Source: Armatimonadota bacterium (GTDB lineage Bacteria; Armatimonadota; Zipacnadia; Zipacnadales; VGFC01). Taken from it: 64,000 bases of DNA. Location: NCBI GenBank assembly GCA_016869045.1, contig VGFC01000004.1, positions 40 through 64,039 on the forward strand. The letters run 5' to 3'. The number at the start of each line of letters is the position of its first letter. The stretch's first letter is position 1. Under the pieces are notes generated by a model. It was not told the origin of the DNA. It searched no databases and saw nothing but the letters and a program-made list of their open reading frames with translations. This document shows positions 28,226 to 63,970 of the stretch, in pieces. The position numbers were made by a program, and so were the translations under genes.

Positions 28226-28342
28226 GGGAATCCGCGATTCTCGTCCGAGCTGTTCCCGTGTAGGGGCGCGATTCATCGCGCCCGCCCATGTAGGGGCGCC
28301 ATTCATGGCGCCCAAGAACCGATACCGCGGATTCTCATACAG
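28226..28342. repeat. family A element copy 1 (MITE-like: GGGAATCCGCGATTC… two hairpin units …CAAGAACCGATACCGCGGATTCTCATACAG)
   Basis: Units tgtaggggcgcgattcatcgcgccc and atgtaggggcgccattcatggcgccc, each a 7-bp-stem hairpin with TTCA loop; ends are an imperfect inverted repeat (GAATCCGCG…CGCGGATTC). Lies upstream of the AOR gene. Confidence 0.7.
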
Positions 28343-28380
28343 ACCCCCGACCACCACGGATCGGCGAAAGGGGAAGCGTC

Positions 28381-30258
28381 ATGGCGATCAAGGGCGTGCT
28401 ACACCGACTGGCCTTCGTGGACCTGAACACCGGCACGGTGACCTACGAGGACCCGGGCGACGAGCTGTACGAGAAGTACCTCGGCGGCTACGGGCTCGGC
28501 GCATACATGCTCTACACGCGGCAGAAGCCCGGCCTCGACGCGCTGGCGCCCGAGGCCATGCTCGGTCTGCTGACCGGCCCGCTCACCGGCACCGACGCGA
28601 TCACCGGCAACCGCTTCATCGCCGTCGGCAAGTCGCCCAAGACGGGCACCTGGGGCGATGCGAACTGCGGCGGGTACTTCGGCCCGGCCCTCAAGGAGGC
28701 GGGCCTCGATGGCGTCTTCTTCACGGGAGCAGCCAAGGACCCGGTCTACGTCCTCGTGCAGAATGGCGAGGTGACCGTCGAGTGCGCCGCTGACTACTGG
28801 GGGCTCGACAGTGTCGAGACCGAGGCGAAGTTCCAGGCGGCCTACGGCAAGCGGGCGCGTGTGGCGTGCATCGGGCCTTCGGGCGAGCGCGTGAGCGCCC
28901 TGGCCGCGATCATCAACGATGGCGGGCGCGCCGCCGGCCGCTCGGGGCTCGGCATGGTCATGGGCTCCAAGAAGCTCAAGGCCGTCGTGGCCGTCCCGTC
29001 AAGCCCGGTCGAGGTCGCCGACGCCGATGCCCTGAAGGCCGTTCGCCAACGCGTGCTGGGTGAGTACTACAAGGCGGGCAACCCGGCCTACGAGCTGTTC
29101 AGCAGCTACGGCACCTGCGGAATCACCGCCGGCTCGGTCCAGAAGGGCGACGCGCCGATCAAGAACTGGTCGGGCACCGTGCACGACTTCCCCACCGCCG
29201 AGAAGATCAGCGACGATGCGGTCATCGCCACCCAGACCCGCAAGTACGGCTGCTGGCGCTGCCCCCTTGCTTGCGGCGGGCACGTGAAGGTGGCGGAGGG
29301 CGCCTACGAGGTCGAGGGGCACAAGCCCGAGTACGAGACGCTCGCGGCCTTCGGCGCCATGTGCCTCAACGACAACCTCGCCTCCATCACGGTCTGCAAC
29401 GACATCTGCAATCGGATGGGAATGGACACCATCTCGGCCGGCTGCACTGTGGCCTTCGCCATTGAGTGCTACGAGCGCGGCATCATTACTAAGGAGGACA
29501 CGGGCGGCCTGGAGCTGACCTGGGGCAACCACGAGGCCATCGTCAAGGTCACCGAGCAGATGGGCGACGGCACCGGCTTCGGCGGCATCGTGCTGGGCGA
29601 TGGCATCAAGACCGCCGTAGGCCGGATCGGCCCGGAGGCCGAGGTGGCGGCCATGCACTGCGCCGGCGAGGAGCTGCCGATGCACGACCCGCGCTGCAGC
29701 CCCGGCATCGGCGCCAGCTTCGTGATCGACGCAACGCCGGGCCGTCATACGCAGTACGGCAGCTGGCTCGACGAAGCCGCCTTCCTCCCGCCGGACCTCG
29801 GCCAGCCCCTCCACGCCGACAAGTATGTCTACAACGGCAAGGGCGAGAACGGCGCCTACGTCAGCCGTTGGGGGCACGTCGTCAACGCTTCGGGCCTCTG
29901 CATGTTCGGCTGCACCGTGACCCCGGCGCCCGCCGTGCCCGAGTTCCTCACCCACGCCATGGGCGTCGAGTACACGATGGACAAGGTCCAGGAGGTCGGC
30001 GGCCGGATCGGCGCCCTCCGCATGGCCTTCAACATCCGTGAGGGCGTCCGCAATCCGCTGGACTTCAAGCTCCCGCGCCGCGTGCTGGGCGACCCACCGC
30101 TGGAGCAGGGCGACACCGCCGGCGTCACGGTGGACAACATCGTCGAGATCAAAGACTACTGCGCCGCGATGGGCTGGGACCCGGAGACCGGCGTGCCCAG
30201 CCGGGAGACGCTCGAGGGGTACGACCTGGGCTTCGTCGCGAAGGACCTGCACGGGTAG
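28381..30258 (+). CDS. tungsten-containing aldehyde:ferredoxin oxidoreductase (AOR family)
   Basis: 625 aa with AOR_N and AOR_C domains throughout: …NRFIAVGKSPKTGTWGDANCGGYFGPALKEAGLDGVFFTGAA…; Fe-S and pterin motifs including GCWRCPLAC. Confidence 0.85.
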   Translation: MAIKGVLHRLAFVDLNTGTVTYEDPGDELYEKYLGGYGLGAYMLYTRQKPGLDALAPEAMLGLLTGPLTGTDAITGNRFIAVGKSPKTGTWGDANCGGYFGPALKEAGLDGVFFTGAAKDPVYVLVQNGEVTVECAADYWGLDSVETEAKFQAAYGKRARVACIGPSGERVSALAAIINDGGRAAGRSGLGMVMGSKKLKAVVAVPSSPVEVADADALKAVRQRVLGEYYKAGNPAYELFSSYGTCGITAGSVQKGDAPIKNWSGTVHDFPTAEKISDDAVIATQTRKYGCWRCPLACGGHVKVAEGAYEVEGHKPEYETLAAFGAMCLNDNLASITVCNDICNRMGMDTISAGCTVAFAIECYERGIITKEDTGGLELTWGNHEAIVKVTEQMGDGTGFGGIVLGDGIKTAVGRIGPEAEVAAMHCAGEELPMHDPRCSPGIGASFVIDATPGRHTQYGSWLDEAAFLPPDLGQPLHADKYVYNGKGENGAYVSRWGHVVNASGLCMFGCTVTPAPAVPEFLTHAMGVEYTMDKVQEVGGRIGALRMAFNIREGVRNPLDFKLPRRVLGDPPLEQGDTAGVTVDNIVEIKDYCAAMGWDPETGVPSRETLEGYDLGFVAKDLHG

Positions 30259-30272
30259 CGGCAGGTGCTCGA

Positions 30273-30548
30273 ATGTCGGTAACGGTGCGCGTTCCACCGT
30301 ACTGGAGGCGACACACCGGCCGCAGGGCCGATGTCTCCGCCGAGGGCGCGACGGTCGGCGAGGCCCTCGCGGATGTCGTGCGGCAGCATCCCGAGCTGGG
30401 CCCGCTCCTCTATGGGGACGACGGGGAACTTGCTGCCGGCCTCTCCGTGTTTCTGAACCGTGAATCGATCACCCGGCGAGATGGTGAGCGCACCCCCGTC
30501 TCGCCGGGCGACTCTCTCATGGTTGTGCTTGCCATTGCGGGAGGGTGA
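30273..30548 (+). CDS. MoaD/ThiS-family sulfur-carrier-like protein (C-terminal GG)
   Basis: 91-aa beta-grasp-sized ORF ending …MVVLAIAGG; 15 nt downstream of the AOR stop. Confidence 0.55.
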   Translation: MSVTVRVPPYWRRHTGRRADVSAEGATVGEALADVVRQHPELGPLLYGDDGELAAGLSVFLNRESITRRDGERTPVSPGDSLMVVLAIAGG

Positions 30549-30560
30549 ACCTCAGCCAAA

Positions 30561-30819
30561 CAGGAATCCGCGATTCCCGTCCGAGCCGTTCCCATGTAGG
30601 GGCGCGATTCACCGGCCGTTGTTGTGTAGGGGCGCGATTCATCGCGCCCGCCCATGTAGGGGCGCCATTCAGATTGTGTTGAGAAAGGGCCCCGTCAAAG
30701 GAAGAACCCTCTCCTACGCGCTCTACGTGGCTCGTAGGTCGGGATACCAATCCCGACAATGCCTTTATCAACACAATCTTCATGGCGCCCAAGAACCGAT
30801 GTCGCGGACTCCCATACAG
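30561..30819. repeat. family A element copy 2, interrupted by a nested family B MITE
   Basis: Left end CAGGAATCCGCGATTCCCGTCCGAGCCGTTCCC plus hairpin units; right end CAAGAACCGATGTCGCGGACTCCCATACAG. The third hairpin unit ggcgccaTTCA|…|TTCAtggcgcc is split by the insertion. Confidence 0.7.
30672..30778. mobile_element. family B MITE (107 bp; TIRs GATTGTGTTGAGAAAGG / CCTTTATCAACACAATC; internal hairpin GTCGGGATACCAATCCCGAC) inserted in a family A hairpin loop with a 4-bp TTCA target duplication
   Basis: Read directly. TTCA at 30668-30671 and 30779-30782 flanks the insert. Removing the insert restores the canonical unit ggcgccattcatggcgcc. Confidence 0.7.
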
Positions 30820-30855
30820 CCGGATGCCCCTCACACAACCACCCGGAGCCGACCC

Positions 30856-32301: not shown

Positions 32302-32321
32302 CCGTTTGGAGGGGCCGCATA

Positions 32322-32345
32322 CGAGTCCCGCCCTGGCGGGACGGA
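32322..32345. terminator. stem-loop GTCCCGC-CCTG-GCGGGAC between the convergent HAO-family gene and the SBP gene
   Basis: 7-bp perfect stem read from sequence, 24 nt after the HAO stop and 18 nt from the minus-strand SBP stop. Possible bidirectional terminator. Confidence 0.35.
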
Positions 32346-32362
32346 GTATCCGGCCCAAATCC

Positions 32363-34750: not shown

Positions 34751-34758
34751 CCGCCCGC

Positions 34759-35577: not shown

Positions 35578-35626
35578 CGGCGCCCCTCCCTCGTTGCCCT
35601 GCAGCGTGGAAAGCACCGCCCCCGCC

Positions 35627-35708
35627 GTGTAGGGGCGTGATTCATCACGCCCAAGCGTAGGGGCGCCATTCATGGCGCCCAAATGTAGGGGCGCGATTCA
35701 TCGCGCCC
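35627..35708. repeat. family A hairpin array copy 3 (three units: …gcgtgattcatcacgcc…, …gcgccattcatggcgcc…, …gcgcgattcatcgcgcc…)
   Basis: Intercistronic between the isomerase and the Gfo/Idh/MocA gene. Each unit is a perfect 7-bp stem with TTCA loop. Confidence 0.7.
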
Positions 35709-41763: not shown

Positions 41764-41821
41764 GGCCCCTGCTCCTTCCTTGCCTTGGGACTCCCTGACG
41801 TGTCATCGTAGGCCCACGTAT

Positions 41822-41905
41822 CTCGTAGGTCGGGATTCCAATCCCGACACTGCCTTTCAACACAATCCGTGCTCTGCCCACGGCCGGGCGCAGCACGCTG
41901 CGCCC
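41822..41905. repeat. family B partial copy plus flanking hairpin (…gtcgggattccaatcccgacactgcctttcaacacaatc cgtgctctgccc … gggcgcagcacgctgcgccc)
   Basis: Right-half MITE-B sequence and the same CGTGCTCTGCCC extension and second hairpin as the full copy at 59041. Confidence 0.55.
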
Positions 41906-44905
41906 CTACTTCAGCCTCCACAGCCGCGTGCTTTCTCCCCCCATCTCGACCCGGAACTCCGTCGCCTCCTCCGCAATCGTCTCTCCGCTGAAGAGGTCCG
42001 TGACGGTCGCCCGCTTCGGCAGCCGAACCGTCCGCGTGCCGGCGTTGTCCACGAACAGCGACAGCAGGCTCGCGTTCGCATAGACCGTGTCATCGCCGTC
42101 CACGTAGATGTGCACGCCGGCGTCGCGGGCCAGCTTGCGCAGCAACCGCGCCGGCAGTACCGGCGCCGCCGAGAAGATCGAAGTCCAGCCATCCATCTGT
42201 TTGACCACCAGGCCCGCGCGCTCGCTGCCCGCGAGCTTCCCGAGCACCTGCGCCTCGGGATCGTCCGCCCACACGACCGGGGCGAAGGCCTGGTCTGTCC
42301 CGTATGCGCTGCCATCCGCGAGCGCCACCTTCAGCGGCGCCGCCTCCTCGCTGAAGCGCAGGCGGATGCCCGTGAGGTCGAGCATCGACCGCTCGTCGAG
42401 CTTCCCGCCGCGCACGAGCCCCGGCGCGTAGAGCCACAGAGCCGTCGCGCCGTTGCGCTTGACGACCGTCTCGATGGCCGCGCGCTGCTCGCCCGTCGGC
42501 GCCCACGCATTCGCCAGGATGTACAGTCGCTGCGGCGGCATGTCCGCCAGGTCGCTCAGGTCGTAGTACCCGAACGGCGCGCCGCACCGGCCTAGCTGCG
42601 GGAGCTGGTGCAGCATGAACCAGTCGGTCACGCCGTTGTGGCTGCGCAGGTACCCGAGGCTTTGCGGATCGACGATGAACGCGATCTGGCTGACCGGCCG
42701 GCGATCCCACGCGACCGTCTCATCGGCGATCGCCTTCATCTGCCCGATGTCCTTCAGGATGCGCGGGTCGTCGTACCAGCCGCCGCCCATGTCGAACCAC
42801 CACTTGCCGCACGCGTTCGAGATGACGTTCGCAAACTCGCGCTGCTGCATCGCGAGGCTGCCCTCGTACGTGTCCTGCTTACCCCACTCACCCTTCTGGC
42901 CGCCGGTCAGCCACGTGCGGATGTCGTTCTCGTCGAACCACATCTTCCCGTGCAGCTTCACCGAGTCCGTGAGCGACATGAAGTGGCTGAAGCCGCCCGC
43001 CAGATTCCGGAACGCGTAGCTCGTCGGGCTGGTCAGGAAGTCCACGTCCGGCGACTGCCAGACCTTGAGCGGCGCGAGGTGCCCCGCGTTCTGCTGGCGC
43101 TGCTCGAAGAGCTGCAGCACGTATCCGTAGAACGTGCCAAACAGCGTTTCGCCGTTCGTCGCCTGCTTCACGACACGCGCGAAGTAGTCGATCGTCTCGG
43201 CCGTGAGGTCAGACAGGAAGAGCTGGAAGTCGATGACATCCCGCGCGGAGGTCGGATCGCGGAACGCCCCGTGCTCCGTCGCGACGCGCTTCTGGTAGCG
43301 CGGAATCGCCGCCGTCGCCAGCGTGACGCCCGCCTGCCCCCACGCCTGCTGCAGGGCCGCATCCGTCCCGTACTTCGCCGTGAGCCACTGGCGGAAAGCC
43401 TCCACCGTCGGCTTGCTGTAGTCGCAGTACTTGCCCTCGTTGGCGCCCCAGTACATCCACTCCTCGGTGGTCCCGCTCGCGACGTGGTACCCGATCACCC
43501 GGTCCGCGTAGGGCGCCTGGCGGATGTGCTCGATGTACCTGGTCAGCGCATACGCGGTGTCCGTGCGCCAGACCTCCGACGCCCAGGACGGGCACGGCTT
43601 CCGCTCCGTCTCGTAGAAGAGCTTCGACTCGCCCTCGCCGTCATCGTAGAGCACGAGATGGTCGGGATGCAGCTTGTCCCACCAGTCCGGCGAGTTCACG
43701 TAGACCCGCGGGAAGATGTACGCGTTCGGGTCCGCCTCCAGGATCTTCAGGATCTGCTCGTCGAGCTGGCTGAAGTCGAAGTGGTCGCCCGGCTCCAGCC
43801 ACGCCTGCCGCGCGAAGCCCTGCCACGTGTGGCGGCTGCACGTCGAGGGGAACGAGTAGATGTGCACCCCGTGCTCGCCGACCTGCCCGTAGTACTTCGA
43901 GTTCGGGTTGTACGTCATGTAGACCATCGCCGAGTTCGGCTTCCCGTCGATGAACAGCGTCGGCGCGCCGTTGTGCATCTTCACCTTCGCGACAACGGGC
44001 TTCGGTGTGCGCTGGTTCATCTTCACCGTTCCGATCACCCCATCCGTGCGGTCCTTGTACACGACATCCGCGAAGCCCACGCGCAGCTGCACCTCATGCG
44101 GCCCGCCCCAGGCATAGCGCGGAATGCGAAGCTCTGTGCTGACCTCTACCTCGGCCCCGACCGGCCACTCGGCCGGCCGCGTCGCGGTGGTCACCGCCTG
44201 CTCCACCATGGGTTCGCCGTTGCGTAGCAGCCGCAGCGCAACCTCCGCGTCGGCCGGCAGCGCATCCGCCGCCTTCACCCGCAGGCGCAGCGGAACCGTC
44301 GCTCCCGCCTCGGCGCGCTCCGGTAGTTCCACCTCGCTGACGCTCACGAGTGGCGGTTTCGGCCGCTGCACGCTCAGCTCACCGAGGAAGACCTCGTACT
44401 TCACATCCGCCTTCACATCGAACGCGATGATCGCGAGGTACTTCGCGGGCCAGTTGAACGCACCGTCCGGGTCCTTCGACCATCCCGCGAGCGCGAACTC
44501 GCTCCACGGCCAATCGACTCGCTGCCACTTCCCGTCCGCCTCCAACCGCACCGGCTTGGGCGTGTACTCCGCATTCCCCCGGTCGGCGATCTTCACCGAC
44601 AGCGTGAATGGCGCGTCCGTGTTCCGGATCAGCAGCGAGAGCGTCTCAAAGGGCCGCTCGATCTCGCGCCGCCGGAAGATGTCGTTGAACCCGAACCCCG
44701 GCTTCATCGTGAAGGCCCAGCGCGTCACGTCTCCGCGCTCCGGGTCCTTCGCGTCCTCCAGGCTCCACTCCGTCATTTCGCTGCGCAGGCGCGCCTCATC
44801 CCGCGCAAGGTCGAAAGCCGCAGACGGATGCCCGGGCCACAGGACCTCGGTGCGCATCTCCTGGGTGCTACCTGAGCAGGCCAGCAAAGCCAGCAACGCC
44901 AGCAT
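41906..44905 (-). CDS. large lipoprotein, putative glycoside hydrolase (clan GH-A/GH42-like TIM barrel with N-terminal beta-sandwich domains)
   Basis: Start MLALLALLACSGST (lipobox). A central region with GH-A-like strand motifs (…YIFPRVYVNSPDWW…, …EEWMYWGANEG…) weakly suggests a TIM-barrel hydrolase; family is not certain. The N-terminal 34 track codons lie in family A repeat. Confidence 0.35.
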   Translation of the reverse strand: MLALLALLACSGSTQEMRTEVLWPGHPSAAFDLARDEARLRSEMTEWSLEDAKDPERGDVTRWAFTMKPGFGFNDIFRRREIERPFETLSLLIRNTDAPFTLSVKIADRGNAEYTPKPVRLEADGKWQRVDWPWSEFALAGWSKDPDGAFNWPAKYLAIIAFDVKADVKYEVFLGELSVQRPKPPLVSVSEVELPERAEAGATVPLRLRVKAADALPADAEVALRLLRNGEPMVEQAVTTATRPAEWPVGAEVEVSTELRIPRYAWGGPHEVQLRVGFADVVYKDRTDGVIGTVKMNQRTPKPVVAKVKMHNGAPTLFIDGKPNSAMVYMTYNPNSKYYGQVGEHGVHIYSFPSTCSRHTWQGFARQAWLEPGDHFDFSQLDEQILKILEADPNAYIFPRVYVNSPDWWDKLHPDHLVLYDDGEGESKLFYETERKPCPSWASEVWRTDTAYALTRYIEHIRQAPYADRVIGYHVASGTTEEWMYWGANEGKYCDYSKPTVEAFRQWLTAKYGTDAALQQAWGQAGVTLATAAIPRYQKRVATEHGAFRDPTSARDVIDFQLFLSDLTAETIDYFARVVKQATNGETLFGTFYGYVLQLFEQRQQNAGHLAPLKVWQSPDVDFLTSPTSYAFRNLAGGFSHFMSLTDSVKLHGKMWFDENDIRTWLTGGQKGEWGKQDTYEGSLAMQQREFANVISNACGKWWFDMGGGWYDDPRILKDIGQMKAIADETVAWDRRPVSQIAFIVDPQSLGYLRSHNGVTDWFMLHQLPQLGRCGAPFGYYDLSDLADMPPQRLYILANAWAPTGEQRAAIETVVKRNGATALWLYAPGLVRGGKLDERSMLDLTGIRLRFSEEAAPLKVALADGSAYGTDQAFAPVVWADDPEAQVLGKLAGSERAGLVVKQMDGWTSIFSAAPVLPARLLRKLARDAGVHIYVDGDDTVYANASLLSLFVDNAGTRTVRLPKRATVTDLFSGETIAEEATEFRVEMGGESTRLWRLK

Positions 44906-44960: not shown

Positions 44961-45014
44961 ATGTAGGGGCGCGATTCATCGCGCCCAAGTGTAGGGGCGC
45001 CATTCATGGCGCCC
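44961..45014. repeat. family A hairpin array copy 4 (two units)
   Basis: atgtaggggcgcgattcatcgcgccc aagtgtaggggcgccattcatggcgccc, between the beta-helix gene stop and the GH-like gene start. Confidence 0.7.
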
Positions 45015-47211
45015 GAGGCTCGCCACCGCCGGTTCCTACCCAGCGCTCCGGCAGAATCCCGAACCCATCAAACCAGTACTGCTGCCCCTGCTTCCCGTTC
45101 CCGTTGGTGTAGAAGCGGAACATCTGGAGCAGCTTCACATCGGGGAAGACCTCGCGCACCCACCGCGCGTCGATCTCGACCTCGTGCCACTGGTCGTCGT
45201 CGGTCAGCGTGACCTTGCCGAGGTCCTTGTAGTTGCCCACATTGCGCGTCGCCGTGCCGCCAACGCACACCGCGCCCTGGCCGTGGTTCGTGCTCTTGAA
45301 GGCGTGGAGCCACAGGCCCACCGGCACGCCCGCAGGGATGCGGTAGGCGAAGCGCACGGTCGGGAAGCGGTCGATGTCCCACCAGGGCGGGCGGATGTCA
45401 CACGAGAGAATGGCGCCATCCCTCTCCGCGTAGACGCGCATCGAGCGCTTGCCGCTGGAAGCCGTCGTATCGTCGATCCGCGCATTCGTGTTCTGCTGGC
45501 GGCTGAAGTTCCAGAGGTAGAACCAGTTCTCCAGGTCCTCCGGCTCGAAGCCGACGGCAACGGTGGGCTTCGTCGCCGTCTCCATCGTCTCGATGCGCAG
45601 GCCGCCGGGGATCGCCGGGCCCGCGTACCACTTCTGCTTCTCCGCGCCGCGCTCGTACGCGCCGAGGTCCGGCGCTTTGCCGACGTACGGCAGCGCGACC
45701 CCGTCGCCCTTCTGCCACGTCGCGTCGCGGTCGAGCGTGAGGATGTTCGCCTCGATATCGGCCTTCACGACGACCGCCTGCTGCTTCTTCGCGCCGATGA
45801 AGACGAGGTCACCCGTCTCGCCCGGGATGCCGAAGCCGTCGTAGAATGGCCGCGCATCATCGACCGGCACTTCGCGCCCCGAGCCCGCCTCGCGAGTTAG
45901 CGCCAGCGGCTCTCCTGCATCGAGACACGGGCTGCCCTCGCGCAGCCGGTAGTCATCCTTCGCCGCATCGACGAAGAGCGGATCGGCATCCAGGTTGCCG
46001 GCGAACTGCGCGGGCTTCTGCGCATCCGCCTCCGCGGCCGTCATCGTCAGCCCGTCCCAGGTCGAGACGCCGGGGAACTTCCAGTCATAGCGCACCGTCT
46101 TGTCGCCGGGTCTGCTGCCGAAGAGCACGTTCGAGCGGAAGATGTTGTCCTCCGCGATGTTCGAGTAGAGCAGCAAGGAGAGGCCGTCGCCGCCCGAGTC
46201 GTTGCCTGCAAACACGTTGTTGCGGAACACGTTGCCCGCCACGTAGTGCTGCTCAGGCTTCTCGCTCAGGTCGATCATCTCGTAGCCGTACTCGAGGTTG
46301 CGGTACCACGTGTTGTAGTACAGGTGCGAGCGCAGCATGCCCCACGGCTCGTTGGTCTCCCACTTGTACGAGTTGATGACCAAGGGCCCGTACCAGTTGC
46401 GGTAGATGACGTTGTGCCGGAAGATCGAGTCCACGACAAACAGCTTCGCGCGCCCGTCCGCCGAGCCCGACCCATCGAACCCGTTCGTGATGACGCAGCG
46501 CTCCATCAGCAGCCGCGGCGTCGAGAAGCACTCGAAGTTCCGTCCCCACCGGCAGTCGAAGATGCACTCCCGCACGACGTTGTACGGGCAGTCGAACCAC
46601 AGGCCGAAGGGCCGATGCCCGGCGCGGCTGATGTGGATGCGGTAGAAGAGGTTGTGGCTGCAGTCGAAGTTGTTCCACATGTCCCCGCCGACGTGCCCCC
46701 ATTCGCCGAGGGCGAGCGTCCGGAGGCACTCCAGGTTCTCGTAGCGGTTGTAGTGGCACCCCTTGCACTCGATCGGGCTGTAGACGCCCGTGGCCTGCTC
46801 CATGTGGCAGTTGGCGATGCCGCAGTGGCTCGCCGAATCGAGCTTCATCCACCCTCCCGCCGTCGGCAGGAGCGACAGCCCGTCGATGGTGATCCAGTTC
46901 CGCTCCTTGAGCCGGACGCAGGTCGCGACGTCGTCGCTCGATTTGCCGCCCGTGACCACCGCCTTCAGCGGAGATGCTGCGCGGTACGTGATCCGCTTCC
47001 CCTCGGCGCCCGAGTTCGCCGGCTCAATCACGCCGGGGTACTCGCCATCGAGCAGCACCACCGTATGGCCCGGCTGCAGCGTCGCATTGGCCTTCGCGAG
47101 CGTCTCCCACGGCTGGGCGCGCGTGCCGGCGTTGGCGTCATCACCGGAGGGTGAGAGGTAGTACTCAGTCGCGGTGGCCACCGAGGCGAGGACGAGGATG
47201 AGGGTAAGCAT
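45004..47211 (-). CDS. secreted right-handed parallel beta-helix repeat protein (pectate-lyase-fold carbohydrate-active enzyme)
   Basis: Start MLTLILVLASVATATEYYL (signal). Repeated NxxFxxN/HN beta-helix rungs (…FRHNVIYRN…, …VFRNNVFAGN…, …NIFRSNVLFG…); C-terminal beta-sandwich. Confidence 0.5.
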   Translation of the reverse strand: MLTLILVLASVATATEYYLSPSGDDANAGTRAQPWETLAKANATLQPGHTVVLLDGEYPGVIEPANSGAEGKRITYRAASPLKAVVTGGKSSDDVATCVRLKERNWITIDGLSLLPTAGGWMKLDSASHCGIANCHMEQATGVYSPIECKGCHYNRYENLECLRTLALGEWGHVGGDMWNNFDCSHNLFYRIHISRAGHRPFGLWFDCPYNVVRECIFDCRWGRNFECFSTPRLLMERCVITNGFDGSGSADGRAKLFVVDSIFRHNVIYRNWYGPLVINSYKWETNEPWGMLRSHLYYNTWYRNLEYGYEMIDLSEKPEQHYVAGNVFRNNVFAGNDSGGDGLSLLLYSNIAEDNIFRSNVLFGSRPGDKTVRYDWKFPGVSTWDGLTMTAAEADAQKPAQFAGNLDADPLFVDAAKDDYRLREGSPCLDAGEPLALTREAGSGREVPVDDARPFYDGFGIPGETGDLVFIGAKKQQAVVVKADIEANILTLDRDATWQKGDGVALPYVGKAPDLGAYERGAEKQKWYAGPAIPGGLRIETMETATKPTVAVGFEPEDLENWFYLWNFSRQQNTNARIDDTTASSGKRSMRVYAERDGAILSCDIRPPWWDIDRFPTVRFAYRIPAGVPVGLWLHAFKSTNHGQGAVCVGGTATRNVGNYKDLGKVTLTDDDQWHEVEIDARWVREVFPDVKLLQMFRFYTNGNGKQGQQYWFDGFGILPERWVGTGGGEPRAP

Positions 47212-54190: not shown

Positions 54191-54283
54191 GCCGTTCCCA
54201 TGTAGGGGCGCGATTCATCGCGCCCAAGTGTAGGGGCGTGATTCATCACGCCCAAGAACCGCTGTCGCGGATTCCCCCATACG
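54191..54283. repeat. family A element copy 5 (GCCGTTCCCA - two hairpin units - CAAGAACCGCTGTCGCGGATTCCCCCATACG)
   Basis: In the divergent region between the S8 protease and purL; same unit and tail as copies 1-2. Confidence 0.7.
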
Positions 54284-54424: not shown

Positions 54425-56782
54425 ATGCAGCTCGATGATCGACGCGTTCGCGTATCCGAACTCACCGACGAGCAGCTCGCTGCGGAGCTGAAGCAGCACG
54501 GCGTCGGGTTGACGCCGTTTGAGGCCAGGCGGATCGTGGAACTGATCGGCCACGACCCGACGCTCACGGAGCTGCACATCTTCAACGTCGAGTGGAGCGA
54601 GCACTGCTCGTACAAGAGCTCGCGGGCGACGCTGAAGGAGTTCCTGCCGACCGACGCCCCCAACGTGATCCTCGGGCCGCAGGAGGACGCGGGGATCATC
54701 GAGCTATGCCGGCACAAGGGCCGGCGCTATGGCGTCGTCATCGCGCATGAGAGCCACAACCATCCCTCGCAGGTCCTCCCCCGCGAGGGCGCGGCCACCG
54801 GCATCGGCGGGATCGTGCGCGATGTGGACTGCATGGGCGCGCGCGTGATCGCGACCGGCGACCCGCTGCGCTTCGGCAGTCTGCAAAGCGAGAACGTCGA
54901 GCGGACGCGCTGGATCGTCGAGGGCGTCGTCGAGGGCATCTGGCAGTACGGCAATGCCCTCGGCGTGCCGAACCTGGGCGGGGACGTCTACTTCCGCGAG
55001 GCCTTCGACGACAACTGCCTCGTCAACGTGGTCTCGCTCGGGATTGTCGCCGAGGAGGACATCATCCACTCCGCCGCTCCGCCCGAAGCCGCCCAGGAGC
55101 CTTACGACCTCATCCTCGTCGGCAAACCGACAGACGACTCCGGCTTCGGCGGCTCGGCGTTTGCCAGCAAGGTCCTCAGCGAGGAAGAGCAGGCCGAAGA
55201 CCGCGCTGCGGTTCAGGTGGACGATCCCTTCCTCAAGAACGTGCTCGCGATGCGCAAGGCCAACGAGGCGGTCCGCGAGGCGGCGAAGGCCCAGGGCTAC
55301 CCCATCGGCATCAAGGACCTCGGCGGCGGCGGCTTCGCCTGCGGTTCGTCCGAGATCACGGCCGCCGGTGGGTTCGGGGTGGACATCGACCTTGACGCGG
55401 TCCACGTCGGCTTGGAGAACCTCCACCCCGAGACCATCTGCTGCGCGGAGACCCAGGAGCGCTACGTCCTCGCTGTGCCCCGGCAGTTCACGCCCGAGGT
55501 CTTGCGCATCTACAACGAGGACTGGGACCTGCCGAACGTCTACGAGGGCGCCTGCGCGCGCGTGGTCGGCACGTTCAACGACACGCAGCGGTACGTCATC
55601 CGGCACCAGGGCAAGATCGTCTGCGACGCTCCCGTCGAGGCGGTGACCTCCGGCATCTCCTACCAGCGCGAAGAGAAACCTCGCGAGCCGCAGCTCGCCG
55701 AGCCCGACTTCGAGCAGCCGGCCGACCTCGCCGCCGCCTTGCTGAAGGTCCTCGGCCACGAGAACGTCTGCTCGCGCGAGTTCATCTACCGCGCGTATGA
55801 CACCGAGGTGCAGGGCAACGCGGTGATCCGTCCGGGCGAGGCGGACGCCGGCGTGTGCGCGCCGCTGGAGGGCAGCCGGGCGGGTGTCGCGCTGGCGATG
55901 GATGGGAACCCAGCGTACGGTGCGATCAGTCCATACTGGGCGGGTGCGAACGCGGTCGTCGAGGCGTGCCGTAACGTCGCTGCGGTCGGCGCCATGCCGG
56001 CGGGCCTCACCGACTGCCTCAACTACGGCAACCCCGAGACTCCCACCGCCTTCTGGGAGTTCCGCGAGGGCGTGAAGGGCATCGCGGATGCGGCCCGGCA
56101 GGTCGGGCTGAAGACCCATCCGGGCCAGCCGGTGCCGGTCGTGTCCGGCAACGTGAGCTTCTACAACGAGTCGGCGACCGGGCGCGCCGTCGAGCCGTCG
56201 GGCATCATCGCGTGTGTCGGCGTGATGGCCGACAGCTCGCAGGCCGTCACCATGCAGCTCAAGCACCCAGGCGACACGCTGTATCTCGTCGGCCCGCGCT
56301 ACGACGAATGCGGCGGCTCGGCCTACTACCAGGCGTTGGCACTGGGCCTCGGCGCCAACGTGCCCCACGTCCGCTGGGACGAGCAACGGGCGGCTATCTA
56401 CGGCGTCCTCGATGCCATCGACGCCGGGCTCGTGGCCGCCTGCCACGACATCAGCGACGGCGGTTTGGCGGTCGCACTCGCCGAGATGGCCCTCGGAGGC
56501 TACGCGAGGGGGAAGCTCGGGGCCGAAGTGGACCTCACTCCCCTGGGTGGTGACCTCCGCGCCGACACGCTGCTGTTCAGCGAATCCGGCGGCTTCGTCG
56601 CCGAGGTGAAGGCGGGCCGCGAGGCCGAGTTTGAAGCCCTCTTCGCCGGGCAACCGGTCACGCCCATCCGCATCGGCACGGTCACCCCCGAGTCGCAGTT
56701 CCGGGTCGCCGGCCTCCTGTCGGTCACGATCGCCGACATGGCCGAGGCCTGGACCACCGGCCTCGCCACGCGCCTCCGCTAA
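54425..56782 (+). CDS. purL: phosphoribosylformylglycinamidine synthase subunit PurL (FGAM synthase II)
   Basis: 785 aa with the PurL-specific N-terminus (…FNVEWSEHCSYKSS…), ATP-binding and AIRS-like domains throughout. Confidence 0.85.
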   Translation: MQLDDRRVRVSELTDEQLAAELKQHGVGLTPFEARRIVELIGHDPTLTELHIFNVEWSEHCSYKSSRATLKEFLPTDAPNVILGPQEDAGIIELCRHKGRRYGVVIAHESHNHPSQVLPREGAATGIGGIVRDVDCMGARVIATGDPLRFGSLQSENVERTRWIVEGVVEGIWQYGNALGVPNLGGDVYFREAFDDNCLVNVVSLGIVAEEDIIHSAAPPEAAQEPYDLILVGKPTDDSGFGGSAFASKVLSEEEQAEDRAAVQVDDPFLKNVLAMRKANEAVREAAKAQGYPIGIKDLGGGGFACGSSEITAAGGFGVDIDLDAVHVGLENLHPETICCAETQERYVLAVPRQFTPEVLRIYNEDWDLPNVYEGACARVVGTFNDTQRYVIRHQGKIVCDAPVEAVTSGISYQREEKPREPQLAEPDFEQPADLAAALLKVLGHENVCSREFIYRAYDTEVQGNAVIRPGEADAGVCAPLEGSRAGVALAMDGNPAYGAISPYWAGANAVVEACRNVAAVGAMPAGLTDCLNYGNPETPTAFWEFREGVKGIADAARQVGLKTHPGQPVPVVSGNVSFYNESATGRAVEPSGIIACVGVMADSSQAVTMQLKHPGDTLYLVGPRYDECGGSAYYQALALGLGANVPHVRWDEQRAAIYGVLDAIDAGLVAACHDISDGGLAVALAEMALGGYARGKLGAEVDLTPLGGDLRADTLLFSESGGFVAEVKAGREAEFEALFAGQPVTPIRIGTVTPESQFRVAGLLSVTIADMAEAWTTGLATRLR

Positions 56783-56783
56783 C

Positions 56784-56892
56784 CCCCATGTAGGGGCGCC
56801 TGCGCTAGCCCCCATGTAGGGGCGCCTGCGCTAACCCCCATGTAGGGGCGCGATTCATCGCGCCCACATGTAGGGGCGTGATTCATCACGCC
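56784..56892. repeat. family A array copy 6 (two variant units cccatgtaggggcgcctgcgcta(g/a)cc, then two canonical hairpin units)
   Basis: Immediately after the purL stop. Confidence 0.65.
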
Positions 56893-57066
56893 CCATGCCG
56901 TTTCGTCCTTGCATCCCGTCCTTGCATCCTCTCCGCCTGCGGCGGCCCTCTTGGCCCGCCCGGTTGTTTGCATCTGGCAAGGGTTTTTCTGAAACCTCGT
57001 ACAGACCACGCTGTCTACACCTCCAATCGGGAGTGTAACTGCTCCCGGGCTGAAAGGACTGGGTCG

Positions 57067-58963: not shown

Positions 58964-59029
58964 AACCGTCGTCATGTACGGGCGCGATTATGGTCATGCA
59001 CAATGTGATTAGGCGGGCGTCGTTGTAGG

Positions 59030-59208
59030 GGCAGAGCGTGGATTGTGTTGAAAAAGGGCTGCGTCGAGGAAGCACGCCTCTCATACGCGCCGTACGCGGC
59101 TCGTAGGTCGGGATACCAATCCCGACACTGCCTTTATCAACACAATCCGTGCTCTGCCCAGGTGTTGCTGAACGGACGGCATGGGCAGAGCACGCTCTGC
59201 CGCTACAA
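59030..59208. mobile_element. family B MITE full copy 2 (core 59041-59147) with extended inverted flanks GGGCAGAGCGTG/CGTGCTCTGCCC and a trailing hairpin GGGCAGAGCACGCTCTGCC
   Basis: TIRs GATTGTGTTGAAAAAGG / CCTTTATCAACACAATC; internal hairpin GTCGGGATACCAATCCCGAC. Upstream (58981-59020) is a degenerate family A unit (gtacgggcgcgattatggtcatg). Confidence 0.65.
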
Positions 59209-59331
59209 CGACCCGACGATGTCAGGTTATTTCGTGCATGACCATCATCACGCCCGACGCCGTGCGTCTGATACACCCTCTGAGGCCGCACGCAGATCGT
59301 GGACGAACATCGGGAGGGGCGAGATCCTGAC

Positions 59332-60366: not shown

Positions 60367-60432
60367 CCGCCCTCGCCGTCGAACTACGGCACCATCGCGC
60401 CCAAGCGGGGTCCCGCGGTTCCTCTTGCCGTC

Positions 60433-60514
60433 ATGTAGGGGCGCGATTCATCGCGCCCATGTGTAGGGGCGTGATTCATCACGCCCAAATGTAGGGGCGC
60501 CATTCATGGCGCCC
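60433..60514. repeat. family A hairpin array copy 7 (three units)
   Basis: atgtaggggcgcgattcatcgcgccc atgtgtaggggcgtgattcatcacgccc aaatgtaggggcgccattcatggcgccc. Confidence 0.7.
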
Positions 60515-60589
60515 GAGGGTCCGTATCGTGGGTTCCTGTCTTGGCGGAGGCCCCAATCGGGCCTCCGCTTCGGTAAACCGACACCACAG

Positions 60590-60990
60590 GCCAGCACCAT
60601 GACCTCGCGCACCACGCTCGCCGTCTTGGAGGACAGGCATTCTTGCCTGTCCCAGCCCGCCGCGTTGGAGGACAGGCATTCCTGCCTGTCCAAGCCCCCC
60701 GCGTTGGAGGACAGGCATTCTTGCCTGTCCAAACCGCACCCGGAACGTTGGGGACTGACGACGAAACCCAGCCCCATCGGGTTTCGTTGTCTGTCCCCGA
60801 AGTTGCCTTTCGCGTTCCGTCACTACCCCCGACGAGCCGACACCATGACCTCGCGCACCACGCTCGCCGTCCTGGAGGACAGGCATTCTTGCCTGTCCAA
60901 GCCCGCCGCGTTGGAGGACAGGCATTCTTGCCTGTCCGAGCCCGCCGCGTTGGAGGACAGGCATTCCTGCCTGTCCACTTGCCTGTCCAG
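60590..60990. repeat. duplicated module: 31-bp leader (caccATGacctcgcgcaccacgctcgccgtc) plus 3 x 38-bp repeats, each holding the perfect 22-bp palindrome GGACAGGCATTCTTGCCTGTCC; copies at 60590-60730 and 60837-60990, separated by 107 bp carrying a 9-bp-stem hairpin
   Basis: Read directly; six palindromes in total with unit spacing 38 bp. The array is in frame with the downstream secreted-protein ORF (peptide repeat ALEDRHSCLSKPA). Confidence 0.7.
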
Positions 60991-62782
60991 GGTCTACCGA
61001 CTGTGCCTTGGCCTACTGGCACTGACCCTCGCCGCCGCCGGGAGCGCCGATCGCCGCCTGGACTTCGCCGCTCGCGAGCGCGCGGAGGGCCCTCTGCGGA
61101 TCGGGGAAGTGACGGGCGGCGGGCAGGTGCTCATCCGCCTGCGGAGCAAGGCCGGGTCCGTCCTCCCGCGCGCCCAGAAGGCCGCCGAGGGCCTGCAGAA
61201 GGCCGCGGTTGCAGGCCTCTCGCCTCCCGCCCTGACCGTGGTGGTCGGGCCCGACGGCTCGTCGATCCTCAAAGGCGATGGGCAGGAGATTGTCACCGCC
61301 GACAAGGAGACGGCGCAACTCTCCTCCACGACCCCGACGGCTCTGGCCGCGAGCTGGCAGAGCGCACTCAACACGGTGTTCCGCGAACCCTACCTGGTTC
61401 TGTCTGAGCCGGACGGCCTCCAGGTCCCCGTGGACGAGGCGCGCTACGTCGCCTACGGCGGGCCGCTTGGGAAGCACCTCTCGGCAACCTCCGGCGACGA
61501 GGCCGTGGCGCTGGCGAAGCTGGAGCCGACGAACCGCCGCCTCAAGGTCTACGGGGCCGGTCCGGGTGACACCGCGGTCGCGCTGAAGGCGGGCGCCCTC
61601 AGCCTCGGCCTCCCGGTGCAGGTCCGCTTCTGGGCCGCGAAGATCCTCCCAACCGCCGTGGCGGAGCTAACCGGCAGCGGGCAGGACGGGCACACCGCAA
61701 CCAGGGTTGCCGTCAACGCCGCCCTCGCCGCCGCGCAGCCTCAGCCCGGCGCCACCGTCTCCGCGATCTCCACCGACCGCGAGGGGCCGCTGTTCCGTGT
61801 CGGTGTCCTGGCCACCGGCCAGGACTGCATCGACGCCAAGAGGCAGGTCGAGGTGACACTGAAGTGGGTCACGCCGCCGACCCTCGAGCCGGTGGACGTG
61901 TTCGTGAGCAACTCCCCCGAGCGCATCGTCGCCCTCGGAAGCCTCATGCGCGAGCAACTCCTCCCGGACCGTGCGGCGCGCTTCTTGTACCATCACGTCA
62001 ACTCGACGGAGCAGACCGTCCTCTTCGTTGCCCGCATCGCGAATGCGGGGCCCGGACCCGCCGCCGCGCACGTGATCCTCGGCGAGTCCGGCCCGGACAA
62101 GGACGAGTTGGGCGTCGGCCACGCCGCGGCCGCGCGGTTCTGGAGGGAGCAGCGGACCGGGAGCGGCTACGTCCTGCAGGTCCCGCCGATGACTGCCTCC
62201 GACATCGTGCGCACGCCCGTCGGGCGCGAGGCCATCGTCAGCGGCCTGGCCCAGATCACCCCGCTCTCGTCATCGCCGCTGCTCCTCGAAGTCGCCGCCG
62301 TGCCGGTCGGCCACGAGACGGAGTGGGTCGAGCCCCTCCGGCCGGAGGACTACGCCTCGCCCAAGTTGACGACCTTCCGCTTCGGTGCGCGCAAGGCCGT
62401 CGAGCTGAAGCACGAGATCGGCGGGGCGTGGACGTTCTTCAGCCTGGGCAAGGAGGGCTCGACGAACGAGGCCGGCACGTACCTGGCCGGCGACTACGGC
62501 GTCCTGCACGAGATCGACCTCGAACTCACGAACGCCCGTGAGCAGACCGGCTTCGCGGAGATGGAAGTGCGCGCGAGCGGCGGCGTGATGCGCGGGCTGT
62601 TCCTGATCGACAACGTCCTCCACGAGACCGGTCTTCTGGTCGGCACCCAGCAGGAACGGGTGCTCAAGCTGGAGGTCCCCTCCGGAGCGACGCGTCGTGT
62701 CCGCATCGAGACGATTCCGGAGTCCGCCTCCAACTACCCGGTGCACCTGATCGTCCACTCGCGGCTGCGGAACGTGCCATGA
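60845..62782 (+). CDS. hypothetical exported/membrane-anchored protein (start uncertain: ATG 60845 or 60598, both inside the palindrome array)
   Basis: Hydrophobic segment LCLGLLALTLAAAGSA right after the array, then about 590 aa of Ala/Gly/Val-rich globular sequence with no confident family match. No in-frame start codon lies between the array and the hydrophobic segment. Confidence 0.4.
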   Translation: MTSRTTLAVLEDRHSCLSKPAALEDRHSCLSEPAALEDRHSCLSTCLSRVYRLCLGLLALTLAAAGSADRRLDFAARERAEGPLRIGEVTGGGQVLIRLRSKAGSVLPRAQKAAEGLQKAAVAGLSPPALTVVVGPDGSSILKGDGQEIVTADKETAQLSSTTPTALAASWQSALNTVFREPYLVLSEPDGLQVPVDEARYVAYGGPLGKHLSATSGDEAVALAKLEPTNRRLKVYGAGPGDTAVALKAGALSLGLPVQVRFWAAKILPTAVAELTGSGQDGHTATRVAVNAALAAAQPQPGATVSAISTDREGPLFRVGVLATGQDCIDAKRQVEVTLKWVTPPTLEPVDVFVSNSPERIVALGSLMREQLLPDRAARFLYHHVNSTEQTVLFVARIANAGPGPAAAHVILGESGPDKDELGVGHAAAARFWREQRTGSGYVLQVPPMTASDIVRTPVGREAIVSGLAQITPLSSSPLLLEVAAVPVGHETEWVEPLRPEDYASPKLTTFRFGARKAVELKHEIGGAWTFFSLGKEGSTNEAGTYLAGDYGVLHEIDLELTNAREQTGFAEMEVRASGGVMRGLFLIDNVLHETGLLVGTQQERVLKLEVPSGATRRVRIETIPESASNYPVHLIVHSRLRNVP

Positions 62783-63783
62783 GGCTGCGCGACACGAGTG
62801 AGGGTGAGTTTCTGCGCGCCGTCCGCCAGACGCTGGGCGGCGCCGGGGGCCGAGTGTGTCTGGGGATCGGGGACGATGCCGCAGTCCTCGACTGCCCGCC
62901 CGGGCGCTCCCTGGTGCTCACCTGCGACGCCGCGGTTGAGGGCCGTCACTTCCGCCGCGAGTGGTTCTCTCACCGCGAGATCGGCGAGCGCGCCGTGCGC
63001 TGCGCCCTCAGTGATCTCGCCGCCATGGGCGCCGAACCCGTGGCGGTGCTGCTCACCCTGATCGTGTCACCCGAGGAGGATGAAGTGGCGGCCCGAGCGG
63101 TGGTCGAGGGCGCGGCCGCGGCGTCCGCGGAGTTCGGCGCGCGCCTGGCCGGCGGCGAGACCGTCGGCGCTCAAGGTCCCCTGGTGCTCGACGTGGCGGC
63201 TGCCGGCCTGGTACGCACGGGGCGGGAGTTGCGCCGCTCCGGGGCGCAGCCCGGCGACGTCATCGCGGTCAGCGGGACCCTCGGCGACGCGGCCGCCGGC
63301 CTCGCCGCGCTCCGCGCCGGTCTTGGTGGCCCCGAGGCGACAGCGGTGATCCGTCGCTACAAGGTCCCCCAGCCCCAAGTAGCTCTCGGCGTCTTGCTGG
63401 CCCAGTGCGACGGCGTGCACGCAGCCATCGACATCAGTGATGGTCTCCTCATGGACGCGGGTCACATGGCCGAGCAGAGCGGGGTAGGCATCGAGCTGTT
63501 CGCCGACGCTCTCCCCCTCTCCCCCGCCTGTGAAGCGGTCGCCCGGGAACTCGGGGTGCAGCCCTCGGCATGGGCCCTTGGCGGCGGGGAGGACTTCGAG
63601 CTGCTAGTTGCCATATCGCCCCTGGAGTTCGGGAGAGTGCACCATCGGGCCAAGCAGGACTGTGCACTTGAGCTACTCGGCATCGGGCAGGTGACCGAGG
63701 GGCACGGCGTCCGCCTCACAGGGCCTGACGGAACGGACCTCGCCTCGCCCGCAGCGGGCTGGGACCAGTTCCGCTCATCGTAG
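62779..63783 (+). CDS. thiL: thiamine-monophosphate kinase
   Basis: AIR-synthase-related fold with ThiL motifs (…IGDDAAVLD…LVLTCDAAVEGRHF…DLAAMGAEP…ISDGL…GGEDFELL…). Start overlaps the upstream stop (ATGA). Confidence 0.75.
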   Translation: MRLRDTSEGEFLRAVRQTLGGAGGRVCLGIGDDAAVLDCPPGRSLVLTCDAAVEGRHFRREWFSHREIGERAVRCALSDLAAMGAEPVAVLLTLIVSPEEDEVAARAVVEGAAAASAEFGARLAGGETVGAQGPLVLDVAAAGLVRTGRELRRSGAQPGDVIAVSGTLGDAAAGLAALRAGLGGPEATAVIRRYKVPQPQVALGVLLAQCDGVHAAIDISDGLLMDAGHMAEQSGVGIELFADALPLSPACEAVARELGVQPSAWALGGGEDFELLVAISPLEFGRVHHRAKQDCALELLGIGQVTEGHGVRLTGPDGTDLASPAAGWDQFRSS

Positions 63784-63791
63784 TCCTTCAC

Positions 63792-63970
63792 ATGTAGGGG
63801 CGCGATTCATCACGCCCAAATGTAGGGGCGCGATTCATCGCGCCCAAGTGTCGGGGCGTGATTCATCACGCCCAAATGTAGGGGCGTGATTCATCACGCC
63901 CAAATGTAGGGGCGCGATTCATCGCGCCCAAGTGTAGGGGCGCGATTCATCGCGCCCTATTGTGTAGGGG
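63792..63970. repeat. family A hairpin array copy 8: six tandem units plus a truncated seventh, running to the window edge
   Basis: Units of 27-28 bp with no spacers, alternating gcgcgattcatcgcgcc / gcgtgattcatcacgcc / gcgcgattcatcacgcc variants. Confidence 0.75.

Follow-up and report, generated by a model that had tools for sequence, protein, structure and literature searches.

Dense GTAG-tagged REP hairpins in an uncultured Armatimonadota genome, and the RAYT transposase that probably spreads them

GTAG-tagged repetitive extragenic palindromes (REPs) include, in a 2013 survey by Di Nocera, De Gregorio and Rocco (PMC3733652), the E. coli REP/PU sequences, the Pseudomonas REPs, and the Stenotrophomonas SMAG repeats. 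The same text describes sub-families that differ by complementary changes, occasional G-T pairs, nesting within longer palindromes, and a distribution that reaches deep-branching phyla. Family A, the subject of this report, is a hairpin repeat that recurs in a 64,000-nucleotide stretch (the window) of an uncultured Armatimonadota genome (contig VGFC01000004.1, positions 40 to 64,039). It has the features common to the GTAG REPs of that text: a GTAG foot, a GC-rich stem of 6–13 bp, a small loop, an intergenic location, and many copies. It also shares the complementary-change sub-families, the G-T pairs, and the nesting in longer palindromes. It differs in that ordered head-to-tail heterodimers are its dominant form; head-to-tail arrangement has been reported as rare for REPs. 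Family A may be previously undescribed: its exact sequence was not found in the text of PMC3733652, though the sequence type is possibly among the consensus sequences of that paper's Figure 1. Very probably, Family A belongs to the GTAG-tagged REPs and owes its spread to a REP-associated tyrosine (HUH/Y1) transposase (RAYT) of subclass 2.4, or group 4.

RAYTs of subclass 2.4 carry the motifs NH[IFV]H, WQ, and YIxNNP; their canonical REP is long, with three G-C pairs at the stem base, and is accompanied by a 'double-foot' REP type; and REPs are inserted in frame inside the RAYT gene (Quentin 2018, PMC6006769). Subclass 2.4, or group 4, is scattered across phyla (PMC6006769; Bertels 2017, PMC5581495). 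In the REPINs of Pseudomonas fluorescens, a REP doublet replicates, and a single-copy RAYT acts in trans to mobilize it (Bertels and Rainey 2011, PMC3116915). Family A resembles REPINs in having a doublet as its unit, and one composite form in related contigs is a large inverted structure. The inverted arrangement of REPINs and of bacterial interspersed mosaic elements (BIMEs) is, however, absent from the window, where 26 of 26 units lie head-to-tail on the plus strand; inverted unit arrangements were found only in other contigs (the composite just mentioned) and in other phyla.

The full unit reads RT-GTAG-GGGCGNNA-TTCA-TNNCGCCC, an 8-bp stem (GGGCGNNA/TNNCGCCC) with a 4-nt TTCA loop. The pattern GGCGYGATTCATCRCGCC, with at most two mismatches, has 20 plus-strand sites in the window against 0.07 expected by chance, and the head GTAGGGGCG has 24 plus-strand sites within 28.2–64 kb against 0.5 expected for the whole window; the repeat is real and far above chance. 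A unit-by-unit inventory counted 21 intact and 5 partial units, every one on the plus strand and all at eight intergenic loci. Intact units start at 28260, 28290, 30626, 35629, 35657, 35685, 44963, 44991, 54202, 54230, 56842, 56870, 60435, 60463, 60491, 63794, 63822, 63850, 63878, 63906, and 63934; partial units start at 30596, 30656, 56790, 56816, and 63964. The repeat period is 28 bp (30 bp at two loci), and the density is 26 units in 36 kb. Three stem variants account for most units: A (CGCGA/TCGCG, ten copies), B (CGTGA/TCACG, six copies), and C (CGCCA/TGGCG, four copies). The unit at 63794 is a single hybrid, with the left arm of A and the right arm of B. GTAG occupies the 5' foot of 25 of the 26 units, the exception being GTCG at 63850. 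A first-pass annotation, made from the letters of the window alone, had counted at least 23 units at these eight loci and had described three stem versions as perfect complements, along with one mismatched stem (GGCGCGA/TCACGCC); the inventory bears out all three statements. The same annotation was right about the TTCA loop and one base pair short on the stem, which it gave as 7 bp.

It had further claimed that stem substitutions occur in pairs, and this stands. All fetched DNA was searched for GTAGGG-N6-TNNA-N6-CC, yielding 59 distinct unit types, 53 of them in register. The high-copy types are all perfectly paired, and at least 15 different stems in the 59-type set are perfect complements. 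Among the 53 types, 94.6% of cells are paired, compared with 81.4% in shuffles, and double changes occupy 51 cells, compared with 10.9; none of 500 shuffles reaches the observed values, although these counts overstate the number of substitutions because copies are not independent events. Compensatory change is present in five of the eight stem pairs, and pairing falls to 23–52% when the partner column is shifted by 1–3. Constant throughout are GTAG, the three basal G-C pairs (GGG/CCC), and loop residues T13 and A16, an invariance that is partly imposed, since GTAGGG, T13, A16, and the terminal CC were required for a unit to be collected; the only free observations of constancy are G7 and its nearly invariant partner C22.

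The unit is also widespread. A cross-phylum scan for the exact pattern GTAGGGGCG[YS]ATTCAT[SR]CGCCC, with one genome per species, returned at least 115 stretches (L001–L115). Among the matches listed, an identical 24-mer occurs in metagenome-assembled genomes (MAGs) of roughly twenty phyla or candidate phyla; the taxa include Acidobacteriota, Chloroflexota, Gemmatimonadota, Omnitrophota, Actinomycetota, Bacteroidota, Nitrospirota, Thermotogae, Armatimonadota, and Myxococcales, as well as Gallionella and Erwinia. Flanking sequence and GC content (0.49–0.74) vary by record, so the 24-mer is not a contaminant. Of the listed matches, 130 of 131 carry one of four complementary combinations, where the pattern permitted 16 at the two variable pairs. 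A three-unit array had no BLAST match among PLSDB plasmids or INPHARED phages, and the literature, searched for the sequence itself and for the peptides it encodes, yielded nothing relevant. All-against-all clustering of open reading frames (ORFs) from the 115 cross-phylum loci, in search of a recurrent neighbor protein, recovered common housekeeping and signaling families only, and no transposase.

Candidate transposases came instead from metagenome contigs, which were scanned for head-to-tail junctions; the 79 loci recovered belong mostly to the window's own sample series (Ga0194110-113). RAYTs were sought with a motif scan (HxH...Yxxx[NEQ]P), with E. coli RayT as positive control, because E. 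coli RayT itself scores weakly on Pfam Y1_Tnp. In the cross-phylum stretches L001–L115 the scan detected no RAYT, but it was not exhaustive, since later tblastn with the new homologues found an N-terminal fragment in L058. In the metagenome loci it detected two Y1 transposase ORFs (L188 and L126), which match NCBIfam REP_Tyr_transpos at E 3.6e-17 and 1.2e-15. The first encodes 211 aa (Pfam Y1_Tnp PF01797, 24.5 bits against a cutoff of 23; NCBIfam NF047646, E 3.6e-17). Family A head-to-tail dimers lie upstream and downstream of it, on the RAYT's own strand, and the gene itself contains a reversed head-to-tail dimer in frame, encoding GVMNDAS...GAMNRAPT. The second (228 aa; plus strand, 5193–6158) comes from the window's sample series and is tied to a 'double-foot' GTAG hairpin, GTAGGGGCGGAC-CCACGT-GTCCGCCCCTAC, found upstream, downstream, and in frame within the gene; its downstream copy has been hit by a 107-bp loop-targeting element, described below. 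RAYT genes flanked by Family A units are present in L188, in L199/L200, in L203, in L131 (window's sample series), and in the Myxococcales MAG L058.

A search with the L188 protein recovered 3,767 homologues at E <= 1e-5, many of them named RayT by the Joint Genome Institute (JGI); source names among them include Desulfosoma, Comamonadaceae, Chloroflexi, and Omnitrophica, in agreement with the spread of the 24-mer over phyla. The peptides VGAxFxAP and/or GxMNxAPT, which are translations of the forward and the reverse unit, respectively, occur in 62 of 120 homologues (P0001–P0120), nearly all between HUH and Y. In-gene REPs were confirmed in the DNA of L188, L199, L203, L205, and L207. (GAMNRAPT, VGAQFIAP, VGARFIAP, and GVMNHAPT are likewise REP translations, and long runs of them in some RAYTs, P0013 and P0026 among these, represent in-frame array expansion within the RAYT gene.) A single RAYT found no match in the PDB by phmmer; a 32-homologue profile was needed, and its sole significant match was E. 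coli TnpA-REP (4ER8, E 9e-7), with the HUH and WQ...Y..NP regions aligned. Residues N71, H72, H74, W138, Q139, Y159, N163, and P164 are invariant. From these alignments and neighborhoods, the predicted cognate transposase is a RAYT of subclass 2.4 / group 4. The likeness to the REPtrons of that clade extends to the RAYT motifs, the long REP base, the double-foot REP (L126), and the scatter over phyla. The sub-clade nearest the window (P0001–P0009) differs in that both the in-gene insert and the flanks are one-strand head-to-tail dimers or arrays, whereas most other clade members carry an in-gene inverted pair, VGAQFIAP...GAMNRAPT.

Moreover, one site differs among relatives in whether it holds the repeats and the RAYT gene. 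The spacer between purL and ompH occurs in three states: a RAYT between direct arrays (L199/L200), an array only (the window), and empty (L208–L210). In L199 and L200 (PurL 92% identical), RAYT P0003 lies directly downstream of purL (L199 3882–4760), with three Family A units before it and five or six after, all on the coding strand. The L199 RAYT site is the position of the window array 56790–56893; the nucleotide alignment covers purL and the A-B dimer, and ends there. In L208, L209, and L210 (PurL 83–88% identity), purL is followed directly by ompH, with neither REP nor RAYT. The window's dimer between the S8 (subtilase) gene and purL, at the 54191 locus, is absent in all four relatives (L199, L208–L210). 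Because REPs at purL-ompH and S8-purL vary at PurL identities of 83–92%, the units are insertion-polymorphic among close relatives. A RAYT flanked by direct repeats would be deleted by recombination between the arrays, leaving a solo array; such a deletion may account for the window array without a RAYT. Alternatively, that array may be an independent REP insertion at a preferred site.

Related contigs define the module that is dispersed. In 127 non-redundant arrays, A precedes C in 62 instances and follows it in 8; A precedes B in 14 and follows it in 8; F precedes B in 11 and never follows it. The A-C pair is not one copied master, because 30 different spacers were seen. The ordered head-to-tail heterodimer, A then C, is the distinctive feature of the Family A module. 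Both array orientations occur in other contigs, and neighboring arrays agree in 9 cases and disagree in 5, so the all-plus orientation of the window is regional at most. Replication-strand bias is a conceivable cause of that orientation; GC skew in the window tracks gene orientation.

These observations suggest a model in which the unit acts as a single-stranded DNA hairpin: a GTAG 5' foot, three basal G-C pairs, four or five variable complementary pairs, a closing A-T pair, and the TTCA loop. Such hairpins would be the recognition and cleavage substrate of the HUH/Y1 RAYT, which, by analogy with E. coli TnpA-REP (PDB 4ER8), presumably binds and cleaves its REP as single-stranded DNA. The enzyme would read GTAG, the stem base, and probably the loop. 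The stem middle would need pairing only, and we propose that this demand gives rise to the compensatory variants. The propagating and presumably mobilized module would be the ordered head-to-tail pair of different hairpins (A-C, A-B, or F-B), either alone or inside two larger palindromic composites, with longer arrays growing from dimers through slippage or unequal recombination. Window arrays without a RAYT would reflect either gene deletion between direct arrays or simple dispersal in trans. Identity of the 24-mer across phyla would likely follow from REPs that travel inside and beside a horizontally spread RAYT gene.

Several points weigh against this account. To our knowledge, RAYT-driven REP transposition has been shown only as E. 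coli in vitro cleavage and joining. Neither tblastn with E. coli RayT nor the motif scan detected a RAYT in the 64-kb window, and tblastn with the same query against the other loci likewise found nothing. The window's sample series offers a single RAYT of this sub-clade, in L131: an A-E dimer precedes it, and beyond the in-gene REP the gene gives way to unrelated sequence and the contig end, so an active cognate enzyme in this genome is putative. Classical REPtrons have inverted REPs, whereas those on either side of these RAYTs are direct, and the more distant clade members L205 and L207 carry REPs inside the gene only. Two-unit arrays make up 101 of the 127 non-redundant arrays, but the share of arrays with at least two units is inflated because the metagenome set was selected on head-to-tail junctions. 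Finally, group-4 RAYTs are reported to be weakly associated with abundant repeats, scored as flanking 16-mers (Bertels 2017, PMC5581495), whereas Family A reaches the density given above.

One elaboration of the RAYT model is unlikely in our estimation, though a lead. Elements of the IS200/IS605 family carry similar, non-identical left-end and right-end hairpins on the same strand. If the RAYT worked like an IS200/IS605 transposase, the A-C pair would be a minimal transposon made of a left end and a right end, the RAYT between arrays would be the autonomous form, and solo arrays would arise by deletion. IS200/IS605 elements and the gene-less palindrome-associated transposable elements (PATEs) share the Y1 HUH transposase with Family A, and the L188 and L199 RAYTs do lie between direct coding-strand hairpin arrays. 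The protein, however, scores as a RAYT (62.6 bits on the NCBIfam model, against 17.3 for IS200), and there is no sign of multiple identical copies of the RAYT gene. Were this reading true, Family A would be an extant intermediate linking IS200/IS605 elements to domesticated RAYT/REPIN systems, and would offer a natural substrate pair for testing RAYT-driven REP movement.

The larger composites raise a different alternative. Type 1 consists of at-AGGAATCCGCGATTCTCGTCCGAGCCGTTCCCGT, then A-gcccat-C, then aAGAATCGATATCGCGGATTCCCATATAG, with 12-bp terminal inverted repeats (TIRs) and at least 14 non-redundant copies in related contigs; the window contributes the elements at 28226 and 30561 and, in degenerate form, the one at 54191. 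Type 2, from related contigs, is a palindrome of ~230 bp built as (C'A')-30 bp-(F B). The first-pass annotation had likened the tailed copies to miniature inverted-repeat transposable elements (MITEs), a description that the TIRs and copy number of type 1 support. It had placed conserved tails (GGAATCCGCGAT...ATCGCGGATTCC) on three copies; both tails are present at 28226–28340 and 30561–30811, but at 54191–54277 the right tail alone is intact. Its further suggestion, that the shorter arrays are cores of such MITEs, is not borne out, since the basic module proves to be the head-to-tail dimer, with tails as an optional outer context. On a stronger version of the idea, the tailed copies would be classical DDE-type MITEs, with 12-bp TIRs GGAATCCGCGAT/ATCGCGGATTCC and a cut-and-paste transposase, and the GTAG hairpins would be cargo or later insertions into a palindromic target. 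Shared arms, TIRs, and GCCCAT spacer in at least 14 type-1 copies do imply that a unit of ~115 bp amplifies as one piece, and PMC3733652 describes longer palindromes that enclose GTAG repeats in Anabaena, Thermomicrobium, and Halothiobacillus. Yet the arms are absent from 35629, 56842, 63794, and most A-C dimers (with their 30 spacers); the window holds no arm-only copy, exact matches to GAATCCGCG being confined to REP loci; type-1 copies show no clear target-site duplication; and the ~1.6 Mb of fetched DNA contains no full-length insertion sequence (IS) with matching ends. We judge a DDE-type origin quite unlikely.

Still less does the evidence favor an RNA element. The first-pass annotation had argued that the selected structure is an RNA, and that the lone hybrid stem, which wobbles in the minus-strand version, names its strand; the corresponding proposal is that the units are primarily 3'-UTR stabilizers, processing sites, or terminators selected on that one strand. 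The co-varying stems would suit such a role. So would the gene context, most window arrays having co-directional genes on both sides: plus-strand genes adjoin or enclose five arrays, minus-strand genes enclose one, convergent genes enclose another, and the last occupies a divergent promoter region. E. coli REPs can stabilize upstream mRNA, and a secondary role of that kind may apply to Family A. The text of PMC3733652 also notes frequent G-T pairing and suggests that many GTAG repeats are transcribed. The two strands, however, fold equally well (−11.2 kcal/mol, z −4.5, and −11.0 kcal/mol for a single unit as single-stranded DNA), and arrays are sense to genes in 20 cases and antisense in 19 (from the 127 arrays, with rough counts from crude GC3-filtered ORF calls). 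All eight window loci are plus-oriented despite the divergent-promoter and minus-strand-gene sites. Most window arrays lie beside plus-strand genes, so co-transcribed RNA would be mostly the plus version, not the minus. Nor does the hybrid name a strand. In the larger set CGCGA/TCACG occurs four times, and hybrids that wobble on the plus strand also occur (CGTGA/TCGCG, two or three times; CGTGG/TCACG, twice); hybrids always join arms of neighboring variants, and recombination or slippage is thus no worse an explanation for them than point mutation. No Rfam family reached its gathering threshold anywhere in the window. Units stand in frame within RAYT coding sequence, and the invariant GTAG lies outside the helix, which fits protein recognition of DNA rather than RNA folding. 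Because the family has a cognate single-strand-DNA transposase, recognition of a DNA hairpin accounts most simply for the constraint. An invariant stem base and loop, and a stem middle that may change provided it pairs, likewise fit a RAYT that recognizes one folded DNA strand, as solved for E. coli TnpA-REP. We consider a primary RNA function very unlikely, and the claims for an RNA and for its minus strand are not supported.

Intrinsic terminators were rejected separately: no T-run follows the GC-rich hairpin on either strand at the window loci, the following sequence being AA(A/G)T, GCCC, or ACAT on the plus strand and CTACAT on the minus strand. A CRISPR array was rejected as well, with spacers of 4–6 nt, dispersal over eight loci, and no cas-related Pfam match in the 20 ORFs scanned (27.4–63.8 kb).

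That the arrays are ordinary minisatellites made by local replication slippage, without transposition, is scarcely credible: 28-bp periodic arrays do reach 6–7 units, a 26-bp slippage duplication lies at 56770–56841, and array length varies between assemblies of one locus, but dispersal contradicts this as a complete explanation (8 unlinked window loci, 127 non-redundant loci in related contigs, many phyla), close relatives have empty sites, and slippage does not predict dominant ordered two-unit heterodimers. Slippage likely contributes to arrays of more than two units.

Family A is therefore best placed, with the RAYT model, as a dense REP family of an uncultured Armatimonadota genome linked to a specific RAYT clade; it is no new kind of element. 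Its departures from described cases are the ordered head-to-tail heterodimers and direct arrays, a RAYT with direct flanks, and high density for a group-4-type RAYT. Carriage with a horizontally spread transposase gene offers a concrete reason for one 24-nt hairpin being identical across many phyla. Specialists in REPs and RAYTs may find the ordered heterodimer, the direct-array-flanked RAYT, and the purL-ompH presence/absence series useful; together they form a tractable natural system for asking which unit a RAYT mobilizes. In annotation, the units give rise to spurious ORFs and peptide motifs (GAMNRAPT, VGARFIAP, GRDESRPY), and they also cause assemblies to break.

The eight loci, all plus-strand, lie in ordinary chromosome. 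Genes of the region encode a SIS-domain protein, aldehyde:ferredoxin oxidoreductase, a multihaem cytochrome, a solute-binding protein, glycoside hydrolases and lyases, a subtilase, PurL, OmpH, LpxD, and ThiL; a protein 100% identical to the window PurL is attributed by NCBI to an Armatimonadetes MAG and is encoded on JGI contigs from samples 3300020109 and 3300020083. The MITE-like type-1 composite at 28226..28340 comprises left arm GGGAATCCGCGATTCTCGTCCGAGCTGTTCCCGT, unit A (28260–28283), spacer GCCCAT, unit C (28290–28313), and right arm AAGAACCGATACCGCGGATTC; it folds as an outer stem bearing two hairpins (−31.8 kcal/mol, z −4.2). The second type-1 composite, at 30561..30811, has an extra partial unit: left arm 30561–30595, partial unit 30596–30611, unit A 30626–30649, unit C in two halves (30656–30671 and 30779–30790), and right arm 30791–30811. 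Between the halves of unit C sits a 107-bp TIR element (30672–30778) with a TTCA duplication; the unit at 30656, first taken to be truncated, is thus split in its loop.

Between convergent genes, 35629..35708 is a head-to-tail array B-C-A with a 28-bp period. A head-to-tail dimer A-C with degenerate arms occupies 44963..45014, between two minus-strand genes. The upstream minus-strand ORF 45004–47211 takes its TGA stop from the unit C loop there, and its last three codons derive from the REP arm; at L131 8349–8355, likewise, the stop of an 890-aa ORF is the TAG of a GTAG head. REPs thus supply gene ends.

In the divergent region between subtilase and purL, 54191..54277 holds a head-to-tail dimer A-B (54202–54253) whose right arm, AAGAACCGCTGTCGCGGATTCC, is type-1-like and whose left arm is degenerate. 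In the purL-ompH spacer (56784..56893), the purL stop region and a REP head are tandemly duplicated twice as a 26-bp unit (56790 and 56816), ahead of dimer A-B at 56842–56893. Here a 26-bp unit, GCGCCTGCGCTAACCCCCATGTAGGG, is repeated 3.2 times (56770–56841), covering the purL stop codon and the first 7–10 REP bases; apparently the REP head seeded a local duplication by slippage. Downstream of lpxD, a head-to-tail array A-B-C with degenerate arms (60435..60514) folds as three independent hairpins (−31.9 kcal/mol, z −7.2).

The last locus, 63794..63970, is a six-unit head-to-tail array: an A/B hybrid, A, B (with the GTCG head), B, A, and A, followed by a truncated head, GTAGGGG (63964–63970), that adjoins the start of another inserted element (63971–64000). 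In another assembly the same locus (L116 19370–19421, aligned with window 63794–63957) has two units and then a different flank; because of this, the array is either variable in copy number between strains or assemblies, or mis-assembled.

Two inserted elements exploit Family A without belonging to it. The 107-bp TIR element (GATTGTGTTGA...TCAACACAATC) carries a GTAG hairpin of its own, GTAGGTCGGGAT-WCCA-ATCCCGAC. In the window it is complete at 30672–30778 and 59041–59147, with right halves only at 20680–20735 and 41815–41868; related contigs hold at least 13 non-redundant copies. It sits exactly in the loops of GTAG hairpins of several families, the 4-bp duplication being the loop itself (TTCA, CGTG, CCAT, or CACG), and so appears to target REP loops, a behavior that to us recalls IS1397-type elements. 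IS1397 and ISKpn1, in BIME loops, and the IS110-family elements IS621 and ISPpu9/10 are known REP-targeting insertion sequences. At the second element, the last REP head of the window is cut after GTAGGGG and followed by TTAAC-ATGAAACGGTCCGCCGTTGGGGAAG (63964–64000; also L200 4713–4833 and L202 1153–1176). In L200 this sequence leads on to a leader rich in inverted repeats and then to an ORF whose protein begins MTQIAMDVHRK, a start that we take to resemble the N-terminus of an IS110-family transposase. The element at 63971–64000 is probably a REP-targeting IS and the cause of assembly breaks there.

The window also holds hairpins of other GTAG/GTGG families. One, GTAGGGGCGCAG-CGTG-CTGCGCCC (41886–41909, minus strand), is situated where a gene has its 3' end; in another, GTAGGGGCAGAG-CGTG-CTCTGCCC (59025–59040 plus 59148–59159, plus strand), the 107-bp element separates the two halves. 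Two inverted copies of GTGGGGCGGGCA-TTCT-TGCCCGCC, 11 bp apart (27320–27377), look like a REPIN. Within ORF 60506–62782, 39-bp tandem repeats form two blocks of ~3 copies each (60612–60977, 89–95% matches); each repeat contains the hairpin GGACAGGCATTCTTGCCTGTCC, and the ORF differs by 3 aa (727 versus 730) between two sample assemblies.

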